From positions 3,206 to 67,205 of the forward strand of contig JAJYNO010000025.1 of assembly GCA_021786295.1 (NCBI GenBank): DNA of 64,000 bases, in the 5' to 3' direction. Within the stretch, counting starts at the first letter, position 1, and every line of letters begins with the position of its first letter. Source of the DNA: a bacterium. GTDB taxonomy: Bacteria; Elusimicrobiota; Elusimicrobia; Elusimicrobiales; UBA9959. A program made the translations under genes and the position numbers. A model generated the notes under the pieces. The model had not been told where the DNA came from. It saw only the letters and a list, made by a program, of their open reading frames with translations, and searched no databases. Shown here one piece after another: positions 11,024 through 54,022 of this stretch.

Positions 11024-12943
11024 ATGAAAGACAATATTTTCAGGGGGTGCGCGGCGCTGCTGTTCGCGGTCTTCGCCGCGCTCCCGGCCGCCGCGCTGGC
11101 CGGCGAGGCGCAGATAATCGCGCTGGGCGGCAGCGTTCAGGCGCGGCTGACCAGCGAGGGGGACTGGGTGAAGGCCTCCAAAGGCCTGTCGGTCCCGGAG
11201 GGCGGCGCGATACGCACCGACGCAGGAGGGGCGGCAGTGGTGCTGATGCCGAACAAGAGCAAGATCTGGCTAAAGGAGAGCACCCGCCTGGAGATAGAGC
11301 AGCGCCAGACGTTCGCCACCAGGCTGGCGCTGCTGTTCGGCAGGATCAAGGCCCGGGTGCCGCACCTGATGCGCCAGGAGAGGTTCGAGGTGCGCACTCC
11401 GTCTGCCGTCTGCGCGGTGCGGGGCACCGAGTTCACGATGGGCACCAGCGAGGACGGCAAGATGGACCTGAAGGTCCTTTTCGGCGAGGTCAACCTGCGC
11501 TTCAACGTGCCTCCGGCCGTGGGTCCGGACAGGTTCGACGTGCCGCAGGGGGAGGAGCTCTCAAGCGCCCCGGAGGGCAAGCCGAACAGGCCGGTGCTGC
11601 TGACGGCCAAGGCCGAGAGCGAGGCCCTCGAGAACTGGGACCCGGGGCTCACTCCGGAGGAGAGGACGGCGGACCTGGTGCGCAAGGAGAACGACCGCGC
11701 CCAGATCCGCGAGTTCGCCGCGGCCACCCAGAACGCCGAGGCGCAGGTCAGGAGCTTCCTGAACGTGGTCAAGGAGTCAGACCTGGCGGCCGGCCGCACG
11801 CTGACCGACGTGCACGGCAATCTGGTGCGAGTGGACCAGCGTCTGCTGCGCCCGGCTCCGGACCAGATACAGTTCTTCAACCTGGTCAAGCGCCAGGTCT
11901 ACAACAACGACGGCTCCTCGGCGCAGAACGGCGGCTTCGCGTACAACGGCGGGCAGGTGATGAACCGCCTGGACTACATGCAGATGACGATGGCCTTCAA
12001 CCAGGCCCTGCCGCAGCGCCTGGAGGACTGGCCAGGCTTCTTCGACAAGAACTCGGTCAAGCCGTCCTGGGCCTCCTTCGTGACGGCCAACCGCACCGAC
12101 GCCTCGCAGATCTTCTTCGCAGCCGAGGGCTACAAGTACGACCAGGCCAGGGACGAGCTGGTCAACAATCCCGGAATACTGACCAATGCCGACGGTTCCC
12201 CTCTGCCGGCCACCAGCCCGGACGACAGGGAGACGCTGATAACAGGCGTGCTGAACGACGATACCGGCGCCGGCGGGACCGGGATCAGCGCGGTACAGGG
12301 CCTGAGCATGATATCCAAACTGCAGGTGGCCGACTCCGGGGCCGGCAACGGGACGCTGGTCTACAAGGACGCCGCCTCCCATCCCGTGGACGGGACCGGG
12401 GCGGGGACCGCCTCGGACGTGGTCTGGGCCGTGCAGACGGCCAATCTGCCCGGCTATGAAAGCAAGGGCTCGGACACGGTAAGCGGCGACGGAGCCCCGC
12501 TCTGGCAGTACCAGGCGGACATGTACGATATCGGCAACCAGCAGTCTACGAACGCGGGAGAATACCTCTGGTTCGCCAAAGAGAACTACGGCATAAGCAA
12601 CAACGGCGCGATAAAGACGGTCGGGGACCTTACGGATTCCGGGCAGGACCCTTTCACCGTGCTGAAGAACAGCGCGCTGGAGAGCGTGATGTACATAAAG
12701 AAATCGTTCGGCAACGATCCGGCCGCCCTCGCCGCAGCGCTCAATCCCTCTCAGATCCCCGTGGCAGCTCTGACGCCCGCCCAGGAAGACGTCCTGAAAA
12801 ACGACATCTCCGGGGAAGATTACTTTTCCTACGGCTCCGGCGGCCCCGGCATGGGCACCAACATCGACGTGGTCTTTATCCCGGACCTGGCCGTGGCCGC
12901 TGTGCAGCGCATGCTGCCTGCTATAACGAGCCTTAAGAACTAA
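11024..12943 (+). CDS. Secreted FecR-domain protein with uncharacterised C-terminal region (paralog A)
   Basis: Signal peptide, FecR core (IRTDAGG...EVRTPSAVCAVRGTEF); shares further blocks with 52397..54022. Confidence 0.85.
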   Translation: MKDNIFRGCAALLFAVFAALPAAALAGEAQIIALGGSVQARLTSEGDWVKASKGLSVPEGGAIRTDAGGAAVVLMPNKSKIWLKESTRLEIEQRQTFATRLALLFGRIKARVPHLMRQERFEVRTPSAVCAVRGTEFTMGTSEDGKMDLKVLFGEVNLRFNVPPAVGPDRFDVPQGEELSSAPEGKPNRPVLLTAKAESEALENWDPGLTPEERTADLVRKENDRAQIREFAAATQNAEAQVRSFLNVVKESDLAAGRTLTDVHGNLVRVDQRLLRPAPDQIQFFNLVKRQVYNNDGSSAQNGGFAYNGGQVMNRLDYMQMTMAFNQALPQRLEDWPGFFDKNSVKPSWASFVTANRTDASQIFFAAEGYKYDQARDELVNNPGILTNADGSPLPATSPDDRETLITGVLNDDTGAGGTGISAVQGLSMISKLQVADSGAGNGTLVYKDAASHPVDGTGAGTASDVVWAVQTANLPGYESKGSDTVSGDGAPLWQYQADMYDIGNQQSTNAGEYLWFAKENYGISNNGAIKTVGDLTDSGQDPFTVLKNSALESVMYIKKSFGNDPAALAAALNPSQIPVAALTPAQEDVLKNDISGEDYFSYGSGGPGMGTNIDVVFIPDLAVAAVQRMLPAITSLKN

Positions 12944-12952
12944 GGGGAGACG

Positions 12953-13699
12953 ATGAAAAGAACAGCGTTCCTCATTCTGTCCGCTCTGTACGCGTCGCCC
13001 GCCTGGGCGGGAGTGGACTTCAATTCCGTCGGCATGAAGATGGCCGGCGAAGTGGTGGCCAACCCGGCCGGCTTCCTGTACGACTTCCAGCAGGATTTCG
13101 AGGGGACCACGCCGCTGCCGCCGGGCAAGAGCCTCAGTTTTCAGACCGGGCTTTGGGGAGGCATACTGCCGACGCTGGCGGCCATGCCCAGCCTTTCCGC
13201 CAAGTACCGCCTGCACCCGGAGGGCCGCCTGGCCCCCGGAGTGCCGCAGATAGACCTGATAGGCGGCTACTGGAGCTCGCCGCTGGCCAAGTCTGCCGGC
13301 AACAATTCCAGCGCCGTGAACGACCTGAAGTTCAACGGCTACTACATGGGAGCGCTGGTGACCTCTTCCGTGAGCCCGCGCGTCCGCACTTTCTGGGGCT
13401 ATAAGCACAGCCAGCTCAACGCCAGGCTCTCCTTCGCGGCGGGGCATGAACCGGACCTGCTGGGCACCAAGGTCAACAGTTTCAACACCGGTTTCAGGGA
13501 CGACTTCATCATAGCCGGCATAGAGACCCCGAAGGGCGTGGACAAGCTGTGGAGCATCCAGCTCGACTACGGCCTGGGCACGCAGACCTTCTGCAGCAAG
13601 GTCAGCTGGTACGGCAAGGTGTTCGAGCTGGGGCTGAACATCTACCCTGAGGGCGTGCTGGTGGTGCACCCCGTCTGGAACATGCACATCAATTTCTGA
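12953..13699 (+). CDS. Putative small outer-membrane beta-barrel protein
   Basis: Signal peptide, alternating hydrophobic/aromatic strands, C-terminal Phe (WNMHINF). Confidence 0.65.
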   Translation: MKRTAFLILSALYASPAWAGVDFNSVGMKMAGEVVANPAGFLYDFQQDFEGTTPLPPGKSLSFQTGLWGGILPTLAAMPSLSAKYRLHPEGRLAPGVPQIDLIGGYWSSPLAKSAGNNSSAVNDLKFNGYYMGALVTSSVSPRVRTFWGYKHSQLNARLSFAAGHEPDLLGTKVNSFNTGFRDDFIIAGIETPKGVDKLWSIQLDYGLGTQTFCSKVSWYGKVFELGLNIYPEGVLVVHPVWNMHINF

Positions 13700-13707
13700 G
13701 GACCGAA

Positions 13708-14958
13708 ATGAAAAAGACAATTCTCGGCGTTCTTATGACCGGAGCCCTGGCCGGCGGGGCCGCGGCGGCGGTGCCGGAGGACTCCAAGGTCTTCACTCCG
13801 TACTTCAACATGACGATGATGGAGGCCGGCTACGTGCCCAGCCAGGGGAACATCTTCAGCGGCGGCAACATCGACACGCAGGTCGGCATGCTTACGAAAC
13901 TCTCGCCGAAGGACCAGCTGTTCGGCCTTTACGACTTCAACTACGACGGTCAGGGCTTCGCGCCCCAGGATACGAAGCAGTTCACCGACCGCTCGATGAC
14001 GCACTCGTTCAACTTCGAGTACAGGCGCGCCCTGAGCGGGAAGTTCCGCCTGCGCCCCGGGGTCTCGTTCTCGCACGACTATTCCCGCACCGGCGCCAAC
14101 GAGACCTGGAAGACCGGCCTCTACAACATGAACTCCTTCGGCCTGCAGCTGGCCGGGGACTATCTGTTCGACTTCGAGAAGAACGGCATCGTCACGCTGA
14201 CCGTGCTGACCAAGAACGTCAAGTTCCCGAACTACACGGACCTGCTCAGCGAGTTCAACAGCGTCAACGGCCAGCAGGCCGGCGTCAACGGCGGCCTGGA
14301 GGACCAGCGCCTGACGCAGGTGAGCCTGCGCCCGATGTGGAACAAGTTCTTCGGCGGAATAACCTACACGCAGCAGGACTACAAGAACCAGAAGGTGGTG
14401 GACCTTAACTCTGCCGGAGACACTGCCGGCTACGGAGACACCAAGCAGAAGGACAAGACTACCATGCTGGACGCCGGTTTCAGGCATAAGATCTGGATCT
14501 TCGAGCTGTCGCCGATGGTCTCCTATACCGTACACCGCTCCAACCAGAACTACATCCGGTTCAAGTCCCTCGGCGCCACCTCCACCGACCTCACCTCCGG
14601 CAGTTCCGACGTGACCTTCATAGCCAGGAACTACGACTACAACGAGACCACGCTCAGCGTGCCGGTGGACCTGGACATAACCGGCAAGTGGGCCATAGGC
14701 GGAGCCGTAAGCGTGACCAGCCGCCACTATACGTCGCGGCCCAGGCGCGACGCCCTGAACGACTATATCATGGGCACCAAGCAGGACAACCTGATGACCA
14801 CGCTGACCGGCTCCATCCGCAAGCGCATCAACGAGATAGCCACGGTAAGGCTTTTCTACTCGCTGGTGGTGGCCAGCTCCAACTGCAAGTTCGAACAGTA
14901 TATGCCGTACAACTATACCGGCAACAGTTTCGGATTGGCCTACCAGCTGTCGTACTGA
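13708..14958 (+). CDS. Uncharacterised outer-membrane beta-barrel protein (paralog A)
   Basis: Signal peptide, amphipathic beta-strands rich in Y/F/N/T, C-terminal aromatic (FGLAYQLSY); homologous to 51028..52395. Confidence 0.78.
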   Translation: MKKTILGVLMTGALAGGAAAAVPEDSKVFTPYFNMTMMEAGYVPSQGNIFSGGNIDTQVGMLTKLSPKDQLFGLYDFNYDGQGFAPQDTKQFTDRSMTHSFNFEYRRALSGKFRLRPGVSFSHDYSRTGANETWKTGLYNMNSFGLQLAGDYLFDFEKNGIVTLTVLTKNVKFPNYTDLLSEFNSVNGQQAGVNGGLEDQRLTQVSLRPMWNKFFGGITYTQQDYKNQKVVDLNSAGDTAGYGDTKQKDKTTMLDAGFRHKIWIFELSPMVSYTVHRSNQNYIRFKSLGATSTDLTSGSSDVTFIARNYDYNETTLSVPVDLDITGKWAIGGAVSVTSRHYTSRPRRDALNDYIMGTKQDNLMTTLTGSIRKRINEIATVRLFYSLVVASSNCKFEQYMPYNYTGNSFGLAYQLSY

Positions 14959-14974
14959 GCGGCCGGCGCTTCCG

Positions 14975-15008: not shown

Positions 15009-15059
15009 GCGTAGTGAGAGCGCCCGATATTTGTTAATATAAGCGGTGTTCTGAACCAC

Positions 15060-16508
15060 ATGAGGACTTGCAAGGCCATAAAGACGTCCGTTCTGTGCGC
15101 GGCGGCCCTGCTGGCGGCTTCGGCCGCCGGCGCGGCCGGTCCCGGCACTTCCGCCGCCGACTTCCTGAAGATCCCGGTGGGGGCCAGGGAGACGGCTATG
15201 GGCGGAGCCTTCACTTCCGTTCCGGACGGTCCCGGCTCCGTGCTCTACAACTCCGCCGGCCTCGGCCTGGCCGCCGTGCCCGGGTTCACTTACTCCTATA
15301 ACGACTATCTGCCCGGCATCTCCCAGCACTGGCTGGCCGGCTCGCTGCCAGCCGTCGGCGGGGCCGTCGGCTTCGGCCTGGATTACCTGGACGTAAGCCC
15401 CTTCGCCTCTTACGATAATCTCGACAACAGGACCGGTTCGGTCTCCGCCTACGACATGGCCGTCTACCTGGGCTACGGGCGCGGCTTCAGGACCGGCCTG
15501 GCCTTCCTGCCTTCTCTCTACCTGGGCGCCTCTTTGAAATCGCTGAAGGAGAAGCTGGCTTCGGTCTCTGCCGCCGGCTACGCCGCCGACGCCGGCCTGC
15601 TGCTGCCTACCTCGGTGAAGGGGCTCGGCTTCGGGCTCGCGGCCAGGAACCTGGCCGCCAGCCGCCTCAGCTTCATCGGCTCCGGGGCCAGGCCGGCGGC
15701 CGAGTGGAAGGCCGGGGCCTCGTATTCGCTCGCTCCGTCCGCCTGGCCCGTGTCTTTCCTGGCCTCCGGCGACCTGAACCTGCCGAAGGACGGCTCCTCA
15801 TATTTCTCGGGAGGAATAGAAGGGACCTTCTACAGGCTGGTCTCGCTGCGGGCCGGCTACAGCTCCTACGGCGACATTTCCGACGGGCTGAGCTTCGGCC
15901 TGGGCCTGCTGCTGCCGTCGCGCTCGGGGCGGCGCCTGCGGCTGGACTATTCTTACGCCTCCACGTACGACCTCGGGAACATGCAGCGTTTCGGGATCTC
16001 CTGCGCGTTCGGAGGCCGGGCCGGCCGGGAGACGCCGGCTCCGTCCGCCGCGCCTCCCGCGACGGAGCCGGCGCCAGCAGGCGGAACCGCGCCGCCGGCG
16101 GCGGCCGCCAAGAGGAGCTTCGATTCCGCGCTGAACGACCTTTACGGCCAGGATCCGGTTAAATCGCTGGCTGCGGCAGAGTACCTCGCCGGCCTTAACG
16201 ACCCGCGGGCCATGGAGCATTTTTCGGCTCTGCTCTCCTCGGGCAGGACTGACTGGCAGATGGCGGCCCTGCGCGGTCTTGAACTCAGCAAGGACCCTCG
16301 CGCGGTTGGCGACCTCTGCCGGGCGCTGGGCGACCAGAAAGAAGAGGTGCGCGCGCACGCCGCCCTGGCCCTGGCCAGCCACCCGGGCCCGGCGGCCTCC
16401 GCCTGCCTGCAGGCCGAGCTGAAGGGCGAGAGTTCGGATATAGTGAAAAGCGCCATCATAAAGGTACTGGGCGGGATGAGCGCGGCGGGGGGGGCGGATG
16501 CACATTAG
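15060..16508 (+). CDS. PorV/PorQ-family barrel fused to a Pro/Ala linker and HEAT repeats
   Basis: ADFLKIPVGARETAMGGAF..YNSAGL PorV-type N-terminus; LRAGY; LDYSY..DLGNMQRFGIS; then HEAT-like repeats (ALGDQKEEVRAHAALAL). Confidence 0.82.
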   Translation: MRTCKAIKTSVLCAAALLAASAAGAAGPGTSAADFLKIPVGARETAMGGAFTSVPDGPGSVLYNSAGLGLAAVPGFTYSYNDYLPGISQHWLAGSLPAVGGAVGFGLDYLDVSPFASYDNLDNRTGSVSAYDMAVYLGYGRGFRTGLAFLPSLYLGASLKSLKEKLASVSAAGYAADAGLLLPTSVKGLGFGLAARNLAASRLSFIGSGARPAAEWKAGASYSLAPSAWPVSFLASGDLNLPKDGSSYFSGGIEGTFYRLVSLRAGYSSYGDISDGLSFGLGLLLPSRSGRRLRLDYSYASTYDLGNMQRFGISCAFGGRAGRETPAPSAAPPATEPAPAGGTAPPAAAAKRSFDSALNDLYGQDPVKSLAAAEYLAGLNDPRAMEHFSALLSSGRTDWQMAALRGLELSKDPRAVGDLCRALGDQKEEVRAHAALALASHPGPAASACLQAELKGESSDIVKSAIIKVLGGMSAAGGADAH

Positions 16509-17063: not shown

Positions 17064-18515
17064 ATGAAAAGAGCGCCTTTTTACAGCGGTATTATCCTTT
17101 TGTCCGCCCTGTTCCTGGCGGCTTCCGCCGGGCCGGCTTCCGCCGTGGTCCCGCTGAAGATAAACTTCCAGGGACGCCTGGACGAGAGCGGCCAGCCCGT
17201 GGACGCGACGAAGACGTTCGTCTTCAGGATATACGACGCGCTCACCGGGGGCACGCCGCTCTGGGTGAGCCAGTCCCAGCCCATAGCGGTCTCTAAGGGC
17301 GTCTTCAGCGCGGAACTCGCGGCAGGGTACCTTTCCGACCTTTCCACGCCCTCCGACATCTCCACCGCCACCTTCTCCGGGGCGCGCTACGTCGAGATAG
17401 TGGTGGACGGACAGACCCTCTCGCCGCGTCAGGAGATAGTGTCGGCGCCCTATGCGCTGGTGGCCCAGTCCCTCTCTCCGGACGCCCAGCTGCCGGCCTC
17501 CAGCATAGCCGACGGCTCGGTCACCGACGTCAAGGTGACTCTCAGCACCGCGGCCATCAGCTCCGGCAAGTTCTCCGACGACCGCGTGACCATCACCACC
17601 GGCGCCTTTAACGGCGGTTTCAACGCCGCCGACAAGCTGGTTCAGCTGCAGAGCAATGGCTATCTTCCGGCGCTTAACGGCTCCCAGCTATACAACGTCT
17701 CGGTGACCACGGCCGGTCTTTCCGGCACCATCACGGACGCGTCCGTGCAGCTCAGCACCGGGGCCATCACCTCCGGCAGGTTCTCCGACGACCGCGTGGC
17801 CATCACCACCGGCGCCGTAGCCGGCGGCTTCAACGGCGCGTACCAGCTGGTGCAGCTGGACGCCTCTGATAAGCTCCCGGCCTTAGACGGCTCCCGGCTA
17901 TACAACGTCTCGGTGACCACGGCCGGTCTTTCCGGCACCATCACGGACGCGTCCGTGCAGCTCAGCACCGGGGCCATCATCTCCGGCAGGTTCGGCGACG
18001 ACCGGGTCTCCATAACCACTGCCGCGGTCGCCTCCGGCAAGTTCTCCGACGACCGGGTGCTGATAACCACCGGGGCCTTCACCGGCGGCTTCAACGGCGC
18101 GGACCAGCTGGCGCGCCTCAACAGCGCCGGCAACCTGGCCATAAGCGGGGGCCTCTGGGCCGCCAGCCTGCAGGTCTCCGGGGCGCTGACCGCCGGGGGG
18201 GGCCTGACCCTGCCGGTGACGATAGTTACATCGACCTATACCGCCACCGCCAACGACGTCACCTTGATAATCAACTCGGCCGCCAGCGGGGCTATCACAG
18301 TAGAATTGCCTTCCGCCGTGGGCATAGCCGGCCGGATCTATATCGTAAAATGCGAGAATACCAACGGGGCGGCATACGATTATGTAGCTCCTTACGGTAG
18401 CGAAACCATAGACGCCGGAAGCTACGATGCTTCTAATCCCTACCCCATGATGGCCCCTAATTCCCTCGTCCTGCAGAGTGACGGGGCTAACTGGATCATA
18501 GTTACATATATCTAG
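17064..18515 (+). CDS. Secreted tail-fibre-like/adhesin protein with internal repeats
   Basis: Start after GGAGA; signal peptide; INFQGRL...PRQEIVSAPYA N-domain; repeated SG(K/R)FSDDRV / GGFNGA units; C-terminal ITVELPSA..GRIYIVK..TID..LQSDGANWII domain. Confidence 0.72.
   Translation: MKRAPFYSGIILLSALFLAASAGPASAVVPLKINFQGRLDESGQPVDATKTFVFRIYDALTGGTPLWVSQSQPIAVSKGVFSAELAAGYLSDLSTPSDISTATFSGARYVEIVVDGQTLSPRQEIVSAPYALVAQSLSPDAQLPASSIADGSVTDVKVTLSTAAISSGKFSDDRVTITTGAFNGGFNAADKLVQLQSNGYLPALNGSQLYNVSVTTAGLSGTITDASVQLSTGAITSGRFSDDRVAITTGAVAGGFNGAYQLVQLDASDKLPALDGSRLYNVSVTTAGLSGTITDASVQLSTGAIISGRFGDDRVSITTAAVASGKFSDDRVLITTGAFTGGFNGADQLARLNSAGNLAISGGLWAASLQVSGALTAGGGLTLPVTIVTSTYTATANDVTLIINSAASGAITVELPSAVGIAGRIYIVKCENTNGAAYDYVAPYGSETIDAGSYDASNPYPMMAPNSLVLQSDGANWIIVTYI
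17687..17979 (+). repeat. Intragenic tandem duplication, 210-bp (70 aa) period with an 83-bp identical core
   Basis: 17687-17769 is identical to 17897-17979. Confidence 0.9.
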
Positions 18516-39776: not shown

Positions 39777-40271
39777 ATGTACCGTTCCGAAAAATTCAAT
39801 CCCACGCTGTTCGGCAAACTGTTCCACCTGGGCTCAAGGCTGGACGAGAAGAACCGCTGGCTGAAGCTGGCCGAGGCCCTGCCGTGGGAGAAGCTGGACG
39901 CCGAGTACGGCAGGTACTTCGCGGCCGGCTACGGAAGGCCGGCCAAGGACTCGCGCCTGGTCTGCGGCCTGCTGGCGGTAAAGCAGCTCAAGAACGTTTC
40001 CGACGAGGACGCGGTGACCGAGTTCATGGAGAGCCCGTACGTTCAGGCCTTCTGCGGCCAGGAGTATTTCGCCGTGGAGGATATGGTCAACCCGGGATTG
40101 CTTTCGGAGCGCCGCAAGCGGCTGGGCCCGGAATTCATGGCCATGCTGGACGCGGAACTGGTCTCCGCGCTGAAGACCCACAGGGACCTGAAGTTCCACC
40201 CGGCGCACCGCCCTGGACCGGAGCCGTTCCTTCCCGCCCTTCTCTCCCGCCTGCGCTCTCTTTTCTCCTGA
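39777..40271 (+). CDS. IS5-family transposase N-terminal domain (DUF772-like) only, without DDE domain
   Basis: NRWLKLA..PW..Y..GRPA..SDE..ESPYVQAFCG..L...RKRLG pattern typical of IS5 transposase N-termini; stops after 164 aa. Confidence 0.75.
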   Translation: MYRSEKFNPTLFGKLFHLGSRLDEKNRWLKLAEALPWEKLDAEYGRYFAAGYGRPAKDSRLVCGLLAVKQLKNVSDEDAVTEFMESPYVQAFCGQEYFAVEDMVNPGLLSERRKRLGPEFMAMLDAELVSALKTHRDLKFHPAHRPGPEPFLPALLSRLRSLFS

Positions 40272-41627: not shown

Positions 41628-41632
41628 GGTCG

Positions 41633-42415
41633 TCAGCCTTTCTTGGTCCGGTGACGCCGGGCCGGGGTCTTGGCCGGGGATCTGCGGGCCCCCGGTTTGC
41701 CCACGAGCTTCTCTATCTCCTCCCTGGCGCTCTTGGCTTCCTGGGACTGCGGGAAGTCGGCCACTACCGACTTCAGGTACTTGAGGGCCTCTTCCTTCTT
41801 GTCCCCAGGCATCCTGAGCAGGGAGAGGGCGTATTTAAGCCTGGCGGCCGGCACCCGGGAGCTGTCGGGGTACTTCTCCAGCATGTTGGCGTAGGCCAGG
41901 GCGGCCTCCTGCCAGTTCCCCTTCAGGTACAGCGACTCTCCCAGATAGAAATAGGCCCCTTCGGCCGTTTCGCCCTGAGGGAACTTGGAGAGATAGGTCT
42001 TGAACCCGGTGGCGGCGCCGTCGAAGTTGTTGTTCAGGTAGGCGTTGTAGGCGTCGTTGTAAATCTTGGCCGGCAGCAGGGAGGTCTGGACCTGCTCCTC
42101 CTGCTTGCGTATGCTCTGGCTGATGGCGCTGACATGCTTGTCGACGGAGGCTCCCAGCGCGCTGAGCTGCCCCGAGAGGCCGGTCATCTGCGCGGAGATG
42201 TCCTTCATGTTCTCGGAGGAGGCGTTGAGGTTGCGCGACAGCTCTTCCATCTTGACGGCCAGTTCGGCCTGGTTCTTCTGCATGTTGGCGAGGTTGGTGT
42301 TGAGGTCGTCCATCTGGCTCTGCATCTGCAGCATGTCCTGCTGCGTCGCGACGCAGCCCGCCGCCAGCAGCGCCGCCGGTAGAAGCAGGAGCGTCCTGGT
42401 GAAGGCCCGCATCAC
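41633..42415 (-). CDS. cpoB: Tol-Pal system protein CpoB/YbgF (coiled coil plus TPR lipoprotein)
   Basis: Lipobox AAGC, coiled coil, TPRs (AYFYLGE, YPDS..P.A.LK). Confidence 0.85.
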   Translation of the reverse strand: MMRAFTRTLLLLPAALLAAGCVATQQDMLQMQSQMDDLNTNLANMQKNQAELAVKMEELSRNLNASSENMKDISAQMTGLSGQLSALGASVDKHVSAISQSIRKQEEQVQTSLLPAKIYNDAYNAYLNNNFDGAATGFKTYLSKFPQGETAEGAYFYLGESLYLKGNWQEAALAYANMLEKYPDSSRVPAARLKYALSLLRMPGDKKEEALKYLKSVVADFPQSQEAKSAREEIEKLVGKPGARRSPAKTPARRHRTKKG

Positions 42416-42954
42416 TGCCCCTTGACCTCGGTGTCGGCGCGGCGGTTCTGGTGCCAGCAGGCCTCGTTCTCCTCGGTGCAGACCGGCTTCTCTTCGCCGT
42501 AGGATATGGTGCCGACGGAATTCTCGGGGACGCCCAGGCGCACGTAATAGTCGCGCACGGCCTTGGCGCGCCTCTGGCCCAGCGCGAGGTTGTACTCTAT
42601 CGTGCCGCGGTCGTCGCAGTTGCCGGCCACCAGCACCGTCCAGTCCTTGTGCTCCTTGAGGACCTCTGCGTTGGCCTGCAGCGTGGCCTGAGCCGCGTCG
42701 GAGAGGTCGTACTTGTCGAAGTCGAAATAGACGCTCTTTATCGACGGGTCTGCGGCGAAATCCCCTCCGCGGATATCGGGCTCGGTGGAGGCGGTCGAGG
42801 AGCTTTCCTCTACGTCAAGCGTCGGTATGGCCTGGGTGTTGGAGACCATCTGCGCGGGTACGCTCTCCGTTTTCAGGTTCTTCTTGGTGCAGGACGACAG
42901 GCTCAGCGCGGCCAGCAGCGGCAGAGCCAGGGTGAGGGATAGAAAAGATTTCAT
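42412..42954 (-). CDS. pal: Peptidoglycan-associated lipoprotein
   Basis: Lipobox SSC, VYFDFDKY, GNCDDRGTIEYNLALGQRRA, SYGEEKP, NRRA. Confidence 0.95.
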   Translation of the reverse strand: MKSFLSLTLALPLLAALSLSSCTKKNLKTESVPAQMVSNTQAIPTLDVEESSSTASTEPDIRGGDFAADPSIKSVYFDFDKYDLSDAAQATLQANAEVLKEHKDWTVLVAGNCDDRGTIEYNLALGQRRAKAVRDYYVRLGVPENSVGTISYGEEKPVCTEENEACWHQNRRADTEVKGQ

Positions 42955-45234: not shown

Positions 45235-48200
45235 ATGCGTTCATTCAGTATTTTGCTCGCCGCCGTCTTCGCGGCTGTCCTGTCGGGGACGGCTTTCGCG
45301 TCGCCTCAGCCGCTCATCGTCACCGTAAACGATAACCAGGGCAACCTCTTGGAGGACGTGACCGTGGCAGCGGTCAACTTCGGGGTGAACGGCCCCTCCA
45401 CTCACAGCGTGTTCGGATTGACGGACTCTTCTGGCGTCGCGGGCCTGCCGCTGGAGCAGGGCGTGGATTACGAACTGTTCGTCAGCACACAGGGCTATTC
45501 CCCGACGCTCGCCGATCAGTTCAACAACCCGGACCCCTCGGCGCATATCCACCTCCTCTATTCCGGCACCCAGCTCACCCGGACGGTAACTCTGGCCCCG
45601 GGGCTGTCGGGGGTGGGCCGCATAGTGCTCCCCTTCAAGAACGCCACCCCCAGCGAGGTGCTTTTCGGCAGCGTCAACAACAGCGCCCTTCAGCAGCCGG
45701 TGGCCTTCGGCATAACGCAGGCCCTGCCCGACAACACCGGTACGCTGATAGTGGACAACGTCCCCTACGCCTCGGCCGGCACGTATAATATCGGCGCGTA
45801 CGACCCCCAGCTCAACAGGGGCATAGGCCAGAACGTCGACCAGGACCTGAACGGCTCCACCCCGGTCACGATGGGGGCGCCGACCTTGGCCTATTCCCAG
45901 GCGGACTTCAACTATTCCGTGCCTCCGACCCGCGCTGACAATACCGCCGCGCAGAACGGCGGCGCCAGCGGCCTCTCAGTGCAGGGCGTGGTGCAGGACA
46001 CCGCCGCGGCGGTGGTCCCTAACATGGGCATCGGTTTCCAGTACTGCTACAACGGCAATTACAACAACATCTGGACGAATACCGACCAGAACGGGAGCTT
46101 CCAGCTTTACGGCCTCCTCCCAGGCGTCACCTACTACGCGCAGGTCTACGGCGGCTGCACCTGGACCCCGACCGGTCCCGGCGCCTGCTACGCTCCTTAC
46201 AGCAGCCCCGCTCTCTCCGGCGGCAGCCTGGACTGCACCACCCCTCCCTCCGTCAAAGGCCAGAACGATTTCGTGTATTACAGCTCGGCCAGCGTACAGT
46301 ACCAGATACTCAGCCTGTCCCAGATGCCGCCCAGCAGCGGCCAGATAAAGGTGTACGTTAAGGATTCCTCCGGCCACCCGATCCCGCAGGGCAACGTGGG
46401 GCTCAGTCCGGACGGCTCCCTCTGGAGCAATAACGGCTGCTCTGGCGCGCAGAGCTCCACCACGACTTTCTCCTCTCCCGGCTTCTCCAACGCCAACATC
46501 CAGCTGGCCCCGGACGGTTCCGCGGTCTTCAGCGGTCTGCCCAGCGGGAACTACGTCGTAAACGCGTGGACCCCGTTCTCGCAGAACGGCGCCAACGGTC
46601 CGGTCCCTTTCAACGCCGGACCTGACCAGCAGTTCGTCTGGGGCAGCTCAGAAGCGCACTGCGGCACCGACGATCTGCGCGTGGCCGTCGACACCGACCC
46701 CGCCACCAACGCCGGGAGCTACCTGCACGTGTACAATTCCTCCGGCACGGACCTGGGGATGTCCGCTATCGATGTCGCGGTCAACACCGGCGGCAACGCC
46801 ACGGGCAGTCTGACGGGCACGCTGCGGTTCAGCCAGGCCGCCGACCTGACCAAGGACCCGATGATGATAACGCTTAGCCCGATCTGCGGCCCCTCCGGCT
46901 GCCAGGGCCAGGGCAATTTCACGGTAGTCGGCAGCAGCGGCTCGCCCAGCTACACCTACGACATCCCGGTGACCAGCGGCACGGCTTACAACCTGAACGT
47001 CAACTCCAGGTGGTGGGCCTGGGCCCGCACCAACGGCGGCAATAACACCGTGGACCTTTCCACCGGGACCGGCAGCGCCGTCATGGACATGAACTTCGTG
47101 CCCGGCGGCGTGATAACCGGCACCGTCTACAAACCGGACGGCACGGTCTACACTCCCGGCAACAATATCTACGTCTGGATCAACGCCGATGCCGACCAGG
47201 GCTGGGCCGGGGCCCAGCTGTCCAAGGACGGCACGTTCGAGATCGACGGCGCGATGCCGGGCGTGAACCAGCTGTCGCTGAATATAAACGGCAACAGCCT
47301 GGAACAGTATACCCTGCCGTTCCCTGACCCGGTAGTGACCGTGGTGGCGGGCAGCACCGCCACGCTGAACCTGAACCTGAGAAGGGCCACCTACCTCGGC
47401 GCGACGGTCGACATGACCAAGCTTCCGGTCAGCTACTTCGAGGCTTCCGGCTCCGGGGACGCCGTCTACGGCTTCAGCGTGCTGCCGCTGCCGTCCGGCT
47501 CCCTGTTCACTCACGACGAGCTGATAAGCGTCCTGAACCACAAGGGCGGGGACAACAACAGCCTCTCCTATTCTCCTCCCGTAGCCCCCAACGCGCAGGG
47601 GCCTTGCGGCAACGGCTGGACGCCCAACGGCTTCTGCGCCGTCGACCTCCCCTCCCCGGCGGTCTATGACCTGTACCTGGTGCGCAACGGGGACTTCTCC
47701 GACATGAGCGTTTCAAATCCGCCTTACCCGTATTTCACGGTGTTCGGCTCCACGCGGAACGTGGTGCTCAACGATTCCAGGGCTACGGCCCCCGTCCCTC
47801 CCAAGTACATGGGCGGGCAGACGGTCAACGGGGTGAGCGTGGATATGACGCCCTCCTCCGACCTGAGCTCCCGCGGCAACGCGACGCTGGCGGGCTCCGT
47901 GACGGCGACCAACTTCTTCCGCCAGGCGGACTACGCCGCCACCGGCGGCGACTTCAACAAGTTCCTGAACTACCTGCCGGTGGTGAGCCTGTACAACTCC
48001 TCCGGCACCCTGAAGGCGGCGGGCCTGGTAGTCCCTTCTCCCTCCTATATACAGCAGCATAACGCCGAGTTCAGCGCGGACTTCGCGCTGGGCTACCAGA
48101 AATTCAGCACGCTGCTGAACAGCGCCGGGGGCTTCGGCTTCGGGATACAGGACCTGCCCCCGGGCGCCTGCTATACGGCCGTGGTCACTACCCCGAACTA

Positions 48201-50079
48201 TCCGCCGTACCAGACCCGCAGGTGCCTTGGCGCGCCCGGCTCCACTACCACCCTCAATATAGACCTGGACACCGCTGTCGGCTACGGGGCCAGCCTTTCC
48301 GGCGTAGTTTCCGATACCGGCACCGTTCCAATGCCTAACGTGCTGGTGACGGTCTCCGTCCCCGGCATGCAGGACAAGGCGGCGGTCACTGGCTCCTCGG
48401 GGACCTACGAGTTCGACGGCCTCCCGGCCGGCACGGTGAAGGTGAAGGCCTCCTTCGGCGGCTACGCCTCCGCCGAGGCCGACGTGGGAGTGAACGGCAG
48501 CGGGACCGCCTTCACGCAGGACCTGACGCTGACCTACGCCCCCGGCTCGATAACCGGCACCGTGTACTCCCAGAAGCTGCCTTTCGCCAAGGTGCAGCCC
48601 GGCGCCCAGATCTACGCCTACGACGACACCTACAACGGCACGCATACGGACAGCCCCCTGCCGCTGATAAAGACCAAGACAGGCCCGGACGGCTCCTACA
48701 CGCTGACCGGCCTCGTCCCCGGGGATACCTATAAGGTCTTCCTGAGCGTGCCCGGCAAGTACGTGCTGGACCAGTCAGTGACCGCCGCCACCTCCGCGGT
48801 CTCCGGCGCTGACTTCACGATGCTGCCCAAGCCGCTGGACATAGAGCTGTTCGCCAAGCAGGGGGAGAGCTACTACGACTTCACCGTGCTCAACCCGCAG
48901 GACTTCAAGTCCGGGGCGGCCTACTGGTGCGAGGCTCCGTACTCCTCCTGCTCCAGCCCGGCGCCGCTGCAGCTGAACCAGCTCTCGAGCGGGGAATTGT
49001 TCGGGCAGATCCCGCTGAGCCTGCTGACCCCCGGGCATACCTACGTGCTGCACGGCGAGGCGACCTCGCTCACCAACCAGACGGTGGTGAAGGAGATAAC
49101 CTTCGGTCTCGGGGTCAGCGCCAACGCCAGCCAGAACATAGACGACGCTATACTGGGCGACGACTCCGACAACGCCGCGGGCCGCGGCAACAACGAGGCC
49201 CCGGTGGACCCCACCGGGACGGACCCGTCCGCGCTGCAGTTCCCGGCCGGCGCGCTGCTGCCGGTCTCCACCGGCGCCATCCCGTCCTGCGCGTTCTCCA
49301 GCACCGACAAGAACGATCCGGCCGTTTCCACCGAGGTCGCTTCCGTAGGCGCGGACGCGATAAAGGGGAACCTGTACAACATCTCGCTGTCCAGCGTGGT
49401 CGTGAACCAGAACAAGGGTTTCGACGTGACGCTGGCCTACGACAAGAGCGCGGTGACGGACCCCTCCGGCCTGGCAGTGGCGCAGTACAACTCGGCCACC
49501 GACAGCTGGGAGAAGGTCCCCGGCCTGGCGGCTATAGACCCGCTGAGCGGCACCATAAAAGTGCGCCTTAAGAGCCTGACCTCGGTGCTGGCGGCAGGCA
49601 GGCGGACGGCCGCGCCGCTCTCCGTCTTCAACGGGCACGAGTACGTGGTCAGCGCGCCGGCCGGCGCTTCCGTCACTACCTCAGGCACCTTCACCGTGCT
49701 GGAATCCACTGCGGTAGGAGCCGGGGGGAGCGTCTCCACGGTCAAGGTCTACAACTTCCCGAACCCGTTCAACCTGGAAAGCAAGACCCTCGCCACCAGG
49801 TACGCCGGCAGCATGACCACCAACGGGACGATAATAAGCGTGGAGGTGCCGGCAGGCAACGGCGGCCCGGGTCACATCCGCATCTATACGCTTTCGGGGG
49901 AGCTGGTGCGCGACATCAGCATCAGCTTCACCGCTGGCGCCTATAACTACGTGACCTGGGACGGCCGGAATAAGGACGGTTCCGAAGTCGCCAACGGGGT
50001 CTATTACGGCTTCGTCAGCTTCTCCGGCAATAAGCCCGGCAGAAAGCACGCCACGTTCAAGATGGCGGTGATCAAGTGA
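45235..50079 (+). CDS. Large (1614 aa) secreted multi-beta-sandwich surface protein with T9SS-like/FlgD-Ig C-terminal domain
   Basis: GGAGG SD, signal peptide, carboxypeptidase-regulatory-like repeats (LSGVVSD..VTGSSGTYEFDGLPAGT), several Cys pairs, C-terminal YNFPNPF..IRIYTLSGELVR..WDGRNKDGSEVANGVY..KMAVIK. Confidence 0.85.
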   Translation: MRSFSILLAAVFAAVLSGTAFASPQPLIVTVNDNQGNLLEDVTVAAVNFGVNGPSTHSVFGLTDSSGVAGLPLEQGVDYELFVSTQGYSPTLADQFNNPDPSAHIHLLYSGTQLTRTVTLAPGLSGVGRIVLPFKNATPSEVLFGSVNNSALQQPVAFGITQALPDNTGTLIVDNVPYASAGTYNIGAYDPQLNRGIGQNVDQDLNGSTPVTMGAPTLAYSQADFNYSVPPTRADNTAAQNGGASGLSVQGVVQDTAAAVVPNMGIGFQYCYNGNYNNIWTNTDQNGSFQLYGLLPGVTYYAQVYGGCTWTPTGPGACYAPYSSPALSGGSLDCTTPPSVKGQNDFVYYSSASVQYQILSLSQMPPSSGQIKVYVKDSSGHPIPQGNVGLSPDGSLWSNNGCSGAQSSTTTFSSPGFSNANIQLAPDGSAVFSGLPSGNYVVNAWTPFSQNGANGPVPFNAGPDQQFVWGSSEAHCGTDDLRVAVDTDPATNAGSYLHVYNSSGTDLGMSAIDVAVNTGGNATGSLTGTLRFSQAADLTKDPMMITLSPICGPSGCQGQGNFTVVGSSGSPSYTYDIPVTSGTAYNLNVNSRWWAWARTNGGNNTVDLSTGTGSAVMDMNFVPGGVITGTVYKPDGTVYTPGNNIYVWINADADQGWAGAQLSKDGTFEIDGAMPGVNQLSLNINGNSLEQYTLPFPDPVVTVVAGSTATLNLNLRRATYLGATVDMTKLPVSYFEASGSGDAVYGFSVLPLPSGSLFTHDELISVLNHKGGDNNSLSYSPPVAPNAQGPCGNGWTPNGFCAVDLPSPAVYDLYLVRNGDFSDMSVSNPPYPYFTVFGSTRNVVLNDSRATAPVPPKYMGGQTVNGVSVDMTPSSDLSSRGNATLAGSVTATNFFRQADYAATGGDFNKFLNYLPVVSLYNSSGTLKAAGLVVPSPSYIQQHNAEFSADFALGYQKFSTLLNSAGGFGFGIQDLPPGACYTAVVTTPNYPPYQTRRCLGAPGSTTTLNIDLDTAVGYGASLSGVVSDTGTVPMPNVLVTVSVPGMQDKAAVTGSSGTYEFDGLPAGTVKVKASFGGYASAEADVGVNGSGTAFTQDLTLTYAPGSITGTVYSQKLPFAKVQPGAQIYAYDDTYNGTHTDSPLPLIKTKTGPDGSYTLTGLVPGDTYKVFLSVPGKYVLDQSVTAATSAVSGADFTMLPKPLDIELFAKQGESYYDFTVLNPQDFKSGAAYWCEAPYSSCSSPAPLQLNQLSSGELFGQIPLSLLTPGHTYVLHGEATSLTNQTVVKEITFGLGVSANASQNIDDAILGDDSDNAAGRGNNEAPVDPTGTDPSALQFPAGALLPVSTGAIPSCAFSSTDKNDPAVSTEVASVGADAIKGNLYNISLSSVVVNQNKGFDVTLAYDKSAVTDPSGLAVAQYNSATDSWEKVPGLAAIDPLSGTIKVRLKSLTSVLAAGRRTAAPLSVFNGHEYVVSAPAGASVTTSGTFTVLESTAVGAGGSVSTVKVYNFPNPFNLESKTLATRYAGSMTTNGTIISVEVPAGNGGPGHIRIYTLSGELVRDISISFTAGAYNYVTWDGRNKDGSEVANGVYYGFVSFSGNKPGRKHATFKMAVIK

Positions 50080-50105
50080 GGGCCGGCGTGACCAGAGGAG
50101 AGACC

Positions 50106-51011: not shown

Positions 51012-51027
51012 CGACGGAGCTGACAAA

Positions 51028-52395
51028 TTGAAAAAGGCCATCATCTTCTCGCTTCTCCTGTCGCCGGTCTGCGCCGGCGCCCAGCTCGTTCCCGAAGTAT
51101 CCACCGGCACGGCGGCCCCTCTTCCAGCCTCCGGCGCCGCGGCCGAACTGGAGTCCAAGGCCTCCGCGGCCAAGTCGGCCGTGGACCCCTTCAACGATAA
51201 CACCCACCGCCCCGCGGCCCCGGCAGGGAAGTACCAGCTGATGGGCACGCTGGACCTGTACGGCGGCCAGTACTTCTTCGGCGGTCAGTCCGGGGCTTTG
51301 AACGGCTACGGCGTGCTGAACGCCGAGCTGGCCAAGAGCTACTCGTCCAGCTACGGCTATTACCTGAGCCTAAATTCTGTCTACACAGGTTTCAAGCAGG
51401 TCAACGAGCTGGCCGGAGGCGGCACGCTGTTCCAGCAGAGCCTGGACAACAGCCTCGGCCTCAAGTGGATAAAACGCTACGACGGCGGGTACGCCCTGAA
51501 GCCTCACATAGGCGTGACCAGCGAGCTCTTCCGGGAGACCAAGGACGAGAAATGGGGGCAGGGGCTCTACGACTTCACCCGCTACGACGCCGGCCTTACG
51601 CTGGAACGCAAGACCCGCGCCGGCTTCGAGGTGCCCTGGACTTACCAGCTTTCCTGGGACGCCTATTACACCCGTTACACGCGTTTCAAGTCCCTGGCCA
51701 GCGAGTACGGGGCCGAACTGGCCGCCCCTGACCCGGGCAGCCGCGTGCTGGACGCCGTTACCAACCAGTTCTCCTATTACAACGAATGGGACCTGCCGGG
51801 CTTCGCGAAGGCCGAGGCGCTCGCTTCGGTCGCCGTCACGGGCTACCCGGAGCAGAAGGTCATCAACTCAGCCGGGTCCTACCTTCCCTCCACGCGCTCC
51901 GACTATTACGAACTGCTCACCCTGTCCGTCAGCAAACGCTATCCCGACGCGGAGGTCCTGGGCGGGATAAGACCGGTAGCGGGTTTAGGACTGACCTTCG
52001 ACGACCAGGTCTCCAACCAGAACCACCTGGACACCGACCCGGCGCACCTGAAGTTCATAAAGTCGTTCTACGATTACTACGAGACGACCCTCTCTCCCAC
52101 GCTTATGCTCACGTCGGTCTCCTCCGGCTTCGTGCTGTCGGCCAATTACAGCTTTACGGCCCGCTGGTATCCTGACCGCCTGACCCAGACCGACTCCGGC
52201 TCCTATACCGGGGATAAGCTGAGGCAGTATACCGGCGACTTCGGCCTGGAAGCCTCCTATCCGATAACGGCTTCCCTGGACGCGAGGCTGCGGACCGACT
52301 GGTCCCTCTCCCGCTCCAATAACCGTTACGAACAGGTCTACCGCTACAACTACGACAGCTCCACGTATTTCGCGGGCGTAGAATGGAGGTTCTGA
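51028..52395 (+). CDS. Uncharacterised outer-membrane beta-barrel protein (paralog B)
   Basis: Signal peptide, Tyr-rich amphipathic strands, C-terminal FAGVEWRF; homologous to 13708..14958. Confidence 0.78.
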   Translation: MKKAIIFSLLLSPVCAGAQLVPEVSTGTAAPLPASGAAAELESKASAAKSAVDPFNDNTHRPAAPAGKYQLMGTLDLYGGQYFFGGQSGALNGYGVLNAELAKSYSSSYGYYLSLNSVYTGFKQVNELAGGGTLFQQSLDNSLGLKWIKRYDGGYALKPHIGVTSELFRETKDEKWGQGLYDFTRYDAGLTLERKTRAGFEVPWTYQLSWDAYYTRYTRFKSLASEYGAELAAPDPGSRVLDAVTNQFSYYNEWDLPGFAKAEALASVAVTGYPEQKVINSAGSYLPSTRSDYYELLTLSVSKRYPDAEVLGGIRPVAGLGLTFDDQVSNQNHLDTDPAHLKFIKSFYDYYETTLSPTLMLTSVSSGFVLSANYSFTARWYPDRLTQTDSGSYTGDKLRQYTGDFGLEASYPITASLDARLRTDWSLSRSNNRYEQVYRYNYDSSTYFAGVEWRF

Positions 52396-52396
52396 G

Positions 52397-54022
52397 ATGA
52401 GAAAGCCGGGCTTTGTCCTTCTTATGCTGCTTTCCGTCCCCTGCGCGGCCATGACGCGCGGCATAGTTCTGGTCCCGAAGGGCACCGTGGAGGCCCGCGC
52501 TTCCGGCTCCGCCTCCTGGGTGCCGGTCTCCAGGGACGTGCGGCTGAAAGAGGGCGACGAGGTCCGCACCTCTGGCGGCGCGACCGCGGACGTCTATTTT
52601 TCCGACGGTTCCCGCTTCAGGATAGGCCGCGACAGCCATTTCGCCGTGGGCAGCACCGGCAGGAAGAGGACCGCCCTCAGCCTGCTTTACGGGAGGCTGA
52701 GGGCCGCGGTGGCGGGGTATTTTTCCAGCCGGGTGGAGGTGCGCACCCCTTCGGCCGTCTGTGCGGTGCGCGGCACCGAGTTCGACGTGCAGGTGGCCAG
52801 GAACGGCGATACCTCGATGAACGTGGACGAGGGCCTGGTTGAGGTCAGCGACGGCAAGGGCAAGACCGCTGTCGTTTCCTCCGAGGAGGCCATAAAGGTG
52901 ACGCAGGCCGGCATGTCCATGCCGCAGCTGGTGTCGCTCAGGGACGACAGGGCCGAGGCCGCCGCGCGGCCGATGGCCGTCATCCACGACACCGCCCGCC
53001 AGCGCACCCGCACGATGCTGGAGGAGCTGCGCAACCGCCAGCTCAAGGCCAACGAGGCGGAGCTGGGCAAGGACGCCATAGACGCGTTCGGCCACCGCGT
53101 GCGCCTGGAGGAGTACCTGCTGCGCCCCTCCGACAAGGAGTTCAAGCTGCTGTTCCTCAGCAAGCGCGAGGAGGCCAGCAGGCTGGACTGGGGCCAGATA
53201 GACGAACAGTTCCACGCCGCCATCCCGGACGACATCAGCAAGGTCGGGGACATTATCAGCGGCATGTACTTCTCCAAGACGGCCCCGACGAACTGGATGA
53301 AGTACTTCGAGGTGTACCTGACCAACACGGTGGACAGCGTGAAGGAGACCATAGACTTCACCCAGCCAGTAGCTATAAATTTCTCCGGCTATACCGGAGT
53401 GGCCAACGACTTCCGCTATTACCCGGGCTCGATCGACTGGAAGCAGATCCTGTCCGGGCCGGGCGTGGCGCTGGCCCAGGGCGCAGGCACTAACGCCCCG
53501 GGGCTCAACGCCGACGAGCGCATGCAGTTCGAGCAGAAGCAGGACTGGAACCAGACCTACGCCAACAATATCACGTTCACGCAGAGCGTGGTGGACGCCT
53601 CCGGAGCGATGGCCGAAATGTACCAGGTCGCTCTGAATCCGGCTCTCTCCGCCAGTGTGCAGGCCGCCGAGGCCGGGGCGTATACGTATTGGAACAGCAA
53701 TATTGACCCCACCCAGCTCACGCCGGCGTACAACAGCTATCCCAGCGGGCCGGACAAGGCGGACCTGTACGGGGAGAGCGTTTACGCCGACGGATCGACC
53801 TTGTCGGTGCGCAAGATGCTGGTGTCCAACGAAGGGGATATCTTGAGCATACCCGGGAACGCCGCCCCCGCCACCTTCCTCAAGGAGGGCAGCTACAACC
53901 TGGAGGAGGTCGTCGGCTCCAGCCTGTTCCAGGGCCGGGATATAGACGTGCTGCTGGCCCCGGAGATACTGAACCAGAAGAATAACGCCACCACCACCGC
54001 GGACAGCTTCAAGCTGAACTGA
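52397..54022 (+). CDS. Secreted FecR-domain protein with uncharacterised C-terminal region (paralog B)
   Basis: Signal peptide, GDEVRT, EVRTPSAVCAVRGTEF, VDEGLVEV; shares blocks with 11024..12943. Confidence 0.85.
   Translation: MRKPGFVLLMLLSVPCAAMTRGIVLVPKGTVEARASGSASWVPVSRDVRLKEGDEVRTSGGATADVYFSDGSRFRIGRDSHFAVGSTGRKRTALSLLYGRLRAAVAGYFSSRVEVRTPSAVCAVRGTEFDVQVARNGDTSMNVDEGLVEVSDGKGKTAVVSSEEAIKVTQAGMSMPQLVSLRDDRAEAAARPMAVIHDTARQRTRTMLEELRNRQLKANEAELGKDAIDAFGHRVRLEEYLLRPSDKEFKLLFLSKREEASRLDWGQIDEQFHAAIPDDISKVGDIISGMYFSKTAPTNWMKYFEVYLTNTVDSVKETIDFTQPVAINFSGYTGVANDFRYYPGSIDWKQILSGPGVALAQGAGTNAPGLNADERMQFEQKQDWNQTYANNITFTQSVVDASGAMAEMYQVALNPALSASVQAAEAGAYTYWNSNIDPTQLTPAYNSYPSGPDKADLYGESVYADGSTLSVRKMLVSNEGDILSIPGNAAPATFLKEGSYNLEEVVGSSLFQGRDIDVLLAPEILNQKNNATTTADSFKLN

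Follow-up and report, generated by a model that had tools for sequence, protein, structure and literature searches.

A conserved gene cassette joins a FecR-domain protein and a predicted barrel of an unnamed family to PorV and sorting-domain cargo in Elusimicrobiota

What are genes of a type IX-like secretion pathway doing in a bacterium outside the Bacteroidota, and why do a FecR-domain protein and an unfamiliar barrel stand beside them? We addressed this question in a window of 64,000 nucleotides (assembly GCA_021786295.1, contig JAJYNO010000025.1, positions 3,206 to 67,205) from an Elusimicrobiota assembly of 2.3 Mb that is 79% complete. The window holds two gene clusters, locus A and locus B, which a preliminary description had read as copies of one four-gene export and display system related to type IX secretion systems (T9SS), each with a FecR protein, a barrel, a PorV-family barrel and a protein ending in a C-terminal sorting domain (CTD). 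The ten genes are present, all on the forward strand (Table 1); profiles and alignments bore out the FecR, PorV and CTD calls, and the proteins of 248, 416 and 455 aa match no family above cut-off. The named homologues of the window's proteins are from Elusimicrobiota, in searches that reach mainly close relatives, in agreement with the description's view that the host is not a member of the Bacteroidota. Locus A and locus B are not equivalent: the latter is a genuine cassette, kept across the phylum in varying gene order. Our favoured but tentative reading is that it belongs to a SprA/PorV export-and-display system without the known motor, in which the barrel would keep its FecR partner displayed on the cell, the two forming a second pair of carrier and cargo.

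The evidence for the cassette comes from 100 barrel loci, 60 from a first barrel search and 40 from further type B matches, which contain 35 barrels of the locus A type (type A) and 69 of the locus B type (type B); figures from these loci are plain counts, not statistical tests, and kin among them are not independent. A FecR-tail gene adjoins the type B barrel in 62 of 69 loci, and within 7 kb there is a CTD gene in 43 and a PorV gene in 37, bearing out for this locus the linkage that the preliminary description had expected. Both PorV and CTD genes are present in 30 of the 50 type B loci with at least 6 kb of flank on each side.

The cassette is tied to one cargo family. A profile seeded from the window's giant CTD protein was joined by 40 of the 47 CTD proteins of the compared loci, and within the studied genome this giant is the only strong member (617 bits, against 32 for the next). 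Profile searches of 201 Elusimicrobiota genomes, the set used for SprA, the barrel and the giant family alike, placed the giant family in 64 genomes and the type B barrel in 63, with both in 58; none of the 121 genomes of two families, f2 and f12, has the giant family. Conversely, a type B barrel stands no more than 15 kb from 62 of the 85 giant matches, and from 36 of the 59 outside the query alignment, in a count that left out one second piece of a split match and took 89 barrel rows as type B by score. Where a giant match is far from any type B barrel, the contig carries no such barrel in 22 of 23 cases, and many of these contigs may be short. Gene order varies among the compared loci, and an order fixed across the phylum was rejected. 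Among 24 close relatives, 22 keep the order CTD, PorV, barrel, FecR, and in the remaining two a contig end interrupts the cassette; 21 of the 22 carry a giant-family gene and one a CTD frame of 364 aa. A second FecR-barrel pair stands directly behind the cassette in 10 of the 24. Elsewhere a fibre-type gene takes the giant's place: it adjoins the type B barrel in one locus (L124:8274-13008), and in another a run of FecR-tail, fibre and barrel genes directly follows sprA (L155:1438-14725).

Locus A is built differently. It consists of a conserved FecR-small barrel-barrel operon and an independent insertion of PorV-HEAT, CTD and fibre genes. The small barrel lies within 400 bp of the barrel in 35 of 35 type A loci and 0 of 69 type B loci, being found only with type A barrels, and a type A FecR-tail gene lies within 3.5 kb in 30 of 35. 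PorV and CTD genes occur within 7 kb in just 6 and 4 of the 35. In 17 related loci the gene after the barrel is smc in nine, PorV-HEAT followed by CTD in two and something else in four; two loci end there. Since just two of these 17 loci have the trio behind the barrel, locus A was rejected as a four-part system, and the proposed pair of equivalent systems gave way to one cassette and one operon with an optional insertion. The paralogy between the loci is old: identities of 26% over 326 columns for the FecR proteins (E 2e-26), 22% over 332 for the barrels (E 2e-8), 32% over 330 for the PorVs and 37% over 67 for the CTDs (E 5e-10; giant against the 182-aa protein) argue against recent duplication. 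The barrel and FecR-tail families occur nowhere else in the studied genome. The sprA gene itself stands no more than 7 kb from the type A barrel in 6 of 35 loci, which represent three families, and from the type B barrel in 1 of 69. We propose that the type A operon represents an earlier form, present in single copy and equipped with an additional small barrel, that stands near sprA in some families. No relation between the small and large barrels was detectable (hhalign probability 3.8).

The insertion at locus A resembles other cargo sites in this genome. Its 182-aa CTD protein is likely to be an adaptor for the fibre; a 177-aa paralogue adjoins another fibre gene (C27:45349). The fibre's N-terminal domain recurs at C27:41370 and C27:153789, and fibre genes with this domain elsewhere in the genome adjoin a small CTD gene or a PorV gene.

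If these loci export cargo by a type IX route, a translocon should be encoded somewhere. As the preliminary description had noted, no sprA or gld gene is recognisable in the window (54 open reading frames, or ORFs, scanned), and Rfam gave no match there. The whole-genome profile search that it had proposed found SprA on another contig: a homologue of 1,795 aa (C31:35699-41086) matches TIGR04189 in three stretches (140.5 bits, E 3.8e-41). The same profile matches a frame of 1,750-1,950 aa in 178 of the 201 genomes, none above cut-off and with a best single stretch of about 80 bits; in the studied genome TIGR04189 alone found SprA, PF14349 giving no match. A profile of 20 SprA-like proteins has a single match in the PDB, SprA of Flavobacterium johnsoniae (E 3.9e-40). 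The system is thus not translocon-free, and the earlier idea of a simplified system lacking the canonical core falls for SprA; the searches described below did not find GldL, GldM, GldN or PorU. The sprA gene is back to back with divergent lptFG and has a ComF-family gene on its other side (L097:7700-13087); over 20 sprA loci, lptFG recurs in 17 and ComF in 18, and no gld gene is among the recurring neighbours scanned. An M6-family metalloprotease with a CTD adjoins lptFG-sprA in eight of these 20 loci (L098, L102, L105, L106, L110, L113, L114, L116), six of which also have a long PorV-like gene of one family; the protease is a candidate for a core cargo or for a processing protease in PorU's place.

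Carriers and cargo are plentiful. The PorV_fam profile NF033709 matched in all 76 genomes hand-chosen from the 201 for this count, 19 times in the studied genome and from 8 to at least 25 times in barrel-positive genomes. Both window PorVs pass it and neither reaches the PorV or PorQ equivalog cut-off, while PorP_SprF passed in one of five genomes and not in the studied one. By a rough gene caller, 13 of 17 CTD genes in the studied genome have a PorV-like gene as their direct neighbour, and among 20 PorV-like genes, distant barrels included, 13 adjoin a CTD gene; at least one further pair was dropped from this count. With so many matches, the recurrence of PorV with CTD is not special in itself. 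One such site encodes a CTD protein of 12,795 aa, then a PorV of 521 aa and a FliG-TPR fusion (C8:71399-113678, L122). The small-genome families f2 and f12, which are probably gut lineages, carry SprA and 1-12 PorV-like matches, lack the giant family and nearly lack the barrel pair (1 of 121 genomes).

Against this background the giant can be placed with some assurance. Its C-terminus passed FlgD_ig and gave weak matches to the C-termini of PorZ and PorU, with no match to TIGR04183 at E<=0.1; like all proteins of the cassette, it begins with a signal-peptide-like N-terminus. The PorV gene that overlaps its stop codon likely encodes its carrier and anchor. In the known T9SS, PorV loops capture the CTD within the SprA pore, from which it departs by a lateral gate (PMC10994853). 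By analogy, the giant very probably follows the T9SS route and stays uncut on its own PorV. It would be exported by Sec, its CTD would be captured by PorV loops in the SprA pore and would exit via the lateral gate, and the giant would pass SprA on its own PorV and remain bound. Without PorU the CTD would stay uncut and each cargo would be held on its gene-linked PorV, as PorZ stays on PorQ (PMC10202324), which would explain why there is one PorV per cargo.

The resemblance to the T9SS of F. johnsoniae (PDB 6H3I) extends to the SprA homologue, the PorV-family barrels, the CTDs and the Sec signal peptides. Here, however, SprA has about 1,800 aa rather than 2,403, many gene-linked PorVs replace the one shared PorV of the Bacteroidota, extra barrel and FecR families are present, the phylum is another, and neither GldL/M/N nor PorU was found. 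GldL, GldM and GldN were each found in 0 of 50 hand-picked genomes, 49 of them at least 90% complete; no positive control rang, so that the result means 'not found' and nothing stronger. GldK gave partial matches below cut-off in one of five genomes and none in the studied genome, with a profile that also rings in controls lacking a T9SS. The PorU peptidase C25 was absent from the studied genome and gave one weak partial match (E 6.5e-4) in the 50. The Parabacteroides record that served as control for SprA and C25 returned C25 at E 7e-110, and itself holds no GldL or GldM match. Could a complete, ordinary T9SS nonetheless be present, its motor and ring diverged past the profiles, with the window holding accessory cargo loci only? 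SprA itself is so divergent (about 80 bits in its best stretch) that PF14349 missed it, GldL, GldM and GldN had no positive control, and the studied genome is incomplete. We nevertheless regard this as quite improbable, given 0 of 50 genomes with GldL/M/N, only a partial sub-cut-off GldK in one of five, no gld gene among the scanned sprA neighbours, and no PorU in a search whose control worked. Pore, carrier and signal are as in a T9SS, yet PorU was not found and the motor went undetected; we regard the system as a variant and not as a T9SS member.

What might drive export in place of the Gld motor? In F. johnsoniae the motor is needed for the release of cargo from SprA (PMC10994853). One contig of the studied genome carries, among cargo genes, a PorV gene, then a FliG-domain fusion (from C27:142675), motA and a motB-like gene, followed by CTD, fibre, PorV and short FecR genes (C27:141440-166712, L123). 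Flagellin and FlhA were not found in the studied genome and were found in one of five genomes tested, with controls ringing. This orphan FliG-MotA-MotB set may supply the pulling force.

We next consider the FecR-barrel pair, which the preliminary description had called a dedicated, undescribed module. No Pfam or NCBIfam family matches the barrel above cut-off, neither barrel family has a PDB sequence relative, and by these profile searches the barrel, the small barrel and the FecR tail are families without a name in either database; the module idea stands. The AlphaFold2 model of the type B barrel (pLDDT 85.5, pTM 0.80) has 16 strands and no periplasmic domain, with a low-confidence or disordered leader of about 60 residues before a barrel that starts at residue 68. 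Its conservation is one-sided. Over 297 sequences, conservation reaches 0.7 or more at 45 positions, 41 of which belong to the outer loops or to strand ends on the outer side, and 0 of 37 periplasmic-turn positions reach that level; the periplasmic turns are the least conserved part (mean 0.18). Sides were set by the rule that long loops face outside and short turns inside, a rule and not a measurement.

The shape of the barrel raises the possibility of a self-contained two-partner exporter, in which the FecR tail would thread the barrel, helix 193-215 would fill the pore and the FecR domain would serve as a periplasmic retention plug, while the giant and PorV use SprA separately. Of all the alternatives this is closest to the 'passenger' role first suggested for the FecR protein. 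The top VIA structural match of the barrel is the TpsB exporter CdiB (Z 20.4, rmsd 3.4, 288 aligned), with FhaC at Z 17.9; a language-model neighbour cluster has SlipAM PF04575 on 19% of its members (score 0.96, 170 shared features, rank 9); and some barrels have fused N-terminal domains. On the partner's side, the FecR domain shows structural similarity to 5ix9, the retention plug of an RTX adhesin (Z 5.9, rmsd 2.9, 74 aligned; profile E 0.079) and matches retention_LapA at E 0.0016, a kind of domain proposed to plug TolC (PMC5550230). CdiB, however, is within 1 Z of a chitoporin (19.6), with further porins next (one at 19.3) and identities of 7-13%, a tie that indicates a 16-strand barrel and no more. 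No POTRA, TPR or PF04575 match appeared in 60 barrel members at E<=0.01, the periplasmic turns, where an exporter would take its substrate, are not conserved, and no FecR-barrel fusion was found among proteins of 815-2,325 aa, a weak test that could have missed a known barrel fusion of 946 aa. Such an exporter would also leave unexplained why the pair is linked to sprA and to a single cargo family. We consider it possible but doubtful. Barrels with fused N-terminal regions (P0160, P0162, P0163, P0164, P0144) carry CsgG-like or fibronectin III domains, or repeats of 250-500 aa of no clear family.

TpsB proteins (CdiB 6WIL, FhaC 4QL0) share the 16-strand barrel and the neighbouring gene for an exported partner, but the barrel here lacks the two POTRA domains (60 members) and any sequence similarity, and the partner lacks a TPS domain (56 partners). 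Type XI secretion through Slam/DUF560 likewise couples a single barrel to an adjacent cargo gene (bioRxiv 10.1101/2024.09.26.615229) and has the weak language-model link; 0 of 60 barrels here match PF04575 or TPR. According to the same preprint, type XI cargo ends in an 8-strand barrel, which is not seen in the FecR model, whose tail is of mixed confidence; TbpB appears only as a weak Foldseek match, at E of about 5e-3 (prob 0.15).

The FecR protein itself is a two-part molecule. Its type B model (pLDDT 76.9, pTM 0.58) shows a FecR domain (PupR, Z 17.1), helix 193-215 and a beta-sheet tail of about 350 residues without a family or a clear fold match (best structural match Z 6.4; a language-model atlas query with the tail returned no usable match). 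In the tail, D229, G232, R236, R243, R257 and N310 are near-invariant, the middle (331-440) varies, and the final strand is conserved. The FecR domain comes directly after the signal peptide. Among 56 FecR-tail members, 55 have PF04773, two have a lipobox-like motif, and in eight, seven of them type A, a hydrophobic window exceeds 1.6.

FecR domains act in periplasmic signalling, PupR being an example, and the protein carries a signal peptide and lacks any known signal for secretion. It might then be a periplasmic adaptor, chaperone or sensor beneath the barrel, whose outer loops would bind the giant or an outside ligand; the giant family tracks the type B barrel and could be such a loop ligand. 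But the barrel's inward-facing turns are the part under least constraint, the FecR protein has neither a membrane anchor nor a cytoplasmic anti-sigma part, no sigma factor or TonB-dependent receptor is among the 54 window ORFs, and type A barrels have the same loop motifs with a CTD neighbour in only 4 of 35 loci. We consider a periplasmic role unlikely. An anti-sigma role was rejected: the layout of cytoplasmic domain and helix, with an ECF sigma factor and a TonB-dependent receptor, was not found in the protein or the scanned window ORFs. FecR/PupR anti-sigma factors, Leptospira LipL45/Lsa33 and the RTX-adhesin retention domain 5IX9 share the N-terminal FecR fold; the protein here differs in its cleavable signal peptide, its lack of a membrane anchor and, in 54 of 56 members, of a lipobox, and its long tail.

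Could the barrel simply be a porin or receptor with a binding partner, hitch-hiking beside PorV and CTD genes in envelope clusters? The best Foldseek matches of the type B barrel are porins (E about 1e-6, TM about 0.35-0.4), PorV genes are abundant enough that some linkage is expected, and hitch-hiking does hold for the locus A trio. For locus B it is very improbable: the type B barrel stays tied to one cargo family through many changes of gene order, and the FecR-barrel pair duplicates along with the giant cassette in 10 of 24 relatives. The conserved outer loops are also the reverse of the usual porin pattern, where the outer loops are usually the variable part.

We return to the reading in which the pair forms part of a SprA/PorV display system. 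Strict gene pairing, outer-face conservation, the lack of a periplasmic receiver for a substrate and the repeated place beside sprA or SprA cargo argue for a carrier and its cargo. In this model the barrel's outer face would bind the conserved FecR tail, and the FecR protein would reach the surface via SprA, in the way that PorP/SprF shuttles carry type B cargo; the displayed protein might then brace or co-assemble with the giant, which is the weakest step. Gene-linked carrier-cargo pairs have precedent (PMC12618676, PMC10202324). Type B cargo genes are strictly paired with shuttle genes (PMC12618676), and in the pairs of type B CTD with PorP/SprF, PorZ with PorQ and PorU with PorV the cargo gene also stands beside its own carrier gene, with uncleaved cargo predicted to stay on the barrel (both papers). 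The carriers here differ in being of the PorV family, the CTDs are type A-like, and the FecR-barrel pair fits neither family.

Several observations weigh against this reading. A CTD gene within 7 kb is missing for 26 of 69 type B barrels, and the PorV-CTD pair is missing from 20 of the 50 long-flank loci. The SprA homologue is below the TIGR04189 equivalog cut-off of 200, a single SprA sequence finds no PDB match, and the motor required for release from SprA in F. johnsoniae (PMC10994853) was not found. No FecR protein has a type A or type B CTD match (0 of 56, Pfam). Known carriers are of the PorV or PorP type, to which the 16-strand barrel is unrelated by sequence; PorV and SprA were not among its best 50 VIA matches, which does not exclude a relation. 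The conserved outer loops may be structural in role. SprA is kept without the pair in 56 of 58 and 43 of 63 genomes of the two small-genome families, where the barrel occurs in 1 of 121, so the pair is dispensable for SprA. Nor do the trees give evidence of contact: for 130 barrel-FecR pairs the trees of both proteins separate type A from type B (support 1.0) and have 54 of 77/78 supported splits in common, but co-inheritance suffices for such agreement. In a mean-field coupling analysis of the same number of pairs (Neff 80), scores between the two proteins did not exceed those of four shuffles. The analysis had no power: contacts inside the barrel were barely recovered, adjacent strands making up 20% of the top 20, against 7%.

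The pair is widespread outside the small-genome families. The barrel family forms 724 clusters at 50% identity and occurs in 72 of 201 genomes, 71 of them among the 80 genomes outside f2 and f12. A bolder version of the carrier-cargo reading, speculative and in our view rather doubtful, has a SprA pore without a Gld motor or sortase, an own PorV for each cargo, the 16-strand barrel serving SprA as a carrier of a third kind, for FecR cargo with a new C-terminal signal, and FliG-MotA-MotB possibly pulling. If true, it would place the T9SS core outside the Bacteroidota gliding machinery of its proposed origin (PMC12635249). Reviews confine T9SS and CTD proteins to the Bacteroidota or the FCB group (PMC10202324, PMC11205867). 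Since 178 of 201 genomes encode SprA, PorVs are many and linked to cargo, and neither a Gld motor nor PorU was detected, both the need for a motor and the gliding origin can be put to the test. The FecR-barrel pair, for its part, offers a conserved, unnamed outer-membrane family with a precise prediction: the partner binds the outer loops. Proteins of these kinds already carry NCBI names assigned by model, either PorV/PorQ family or T9SS type A sorting domain. In the literature searched, which covered neither most subscription papers nor any supplements, we found no description of an Elusimicrobiota SprA, PorV or FecR-barrel pair; the accessible parts of PMC12204202, PMC7031533 and PMC8542988 name related terms and hold nothing on SprA, PorV or the barrel pair in this phylum.

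Table 1. Features of loci A and B, in window positions.
Locus	Feature	Position	Strand	Evidence
A	Sigma-70-like promoter candidate	10989..11017	+	TTGACA-17-TAGACT, 10/12; consensus match only
A	FecR-domain protein of type A (639 aa), with a signal peptide, the FecR domain and a conserved tail without known family	11024..12943	+	PF04773 at 63-156, E 1.5e-15
A	Small predicted outer-membrane barrel, 248 aa, C-terminal Phe	12953..13699	+	Barrel fold inferred from alignment pattern; no Pfam family at E<=0.05
A	Type A barrel, 416 aa, new family	13708..14958	+	189 homologues; 60/201 genomes; monophyletic clade, support 1.0; no family above cut-off
A	PorV/PorQ-family barrel with C-terminal HEAT repeats, first gene of the optional insertion	15060..16508	+	NF033709 (PorV_fam) 97.1 bits, cut-off 90; HEAT_2 390-470
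A	Small type A CTD protein, 182 aa	16498..17046	+	TIGR04183 39.5 bits, cut-off 23
A	Repeat-rich fibre-like protein without CTD	17064..18515 (open frame from 16938)	+	Internal repeats; weak Bdello_MAT_N match, E 1.5e-4
B	Giant CTD protein, 1,614 aa, carboxypeptidase-regulatory-like repeats	45235..50079 (open frame from 45187)	+	CarboxypepD_reg repeats; FlgD_ig 1557-1607
B	PorV-family barrel overlapping the giant's stop codon	50076..51011	+	NF033709 146.4 bits; PDB PorV 6h3i_F, E 5.5e-9
B	Type B barrel, 455 aa, predicted 16-strand beta-barrel, conserved long outer loops, no periplasmic domain	51028..52395	+	AlphaFold2
B	FecR-domain protein of type B (541 aa), with a signal peptide, the FecR domain, a helix (193-215) and a beta-sheet tail whose C-terminal strand is conserved	52397..54022	+	PF04773 54-149

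Divergent from the type A operon are the peptidoglycan enzyme genes mltA and namZ (8414-10918, reverse strand), an arrangement found in 7 of 17 related loci. The Tol-Pal set of pal, a cpoB-like gene and tolB (40338-42954, reverse strand) lies 2.3 kb before locus B and is preceded by a short DUF772 transposase-domain frame (39777-40271, forward strand), likely a remnant. In 11 of the 24 close relatives a CDF transporter gene precedes the giant. Behind locus B lies a gene for a membrane protein without a family (54082-54708, reverse strand), with hemW adjoining, which recurs in 4 of the 24.

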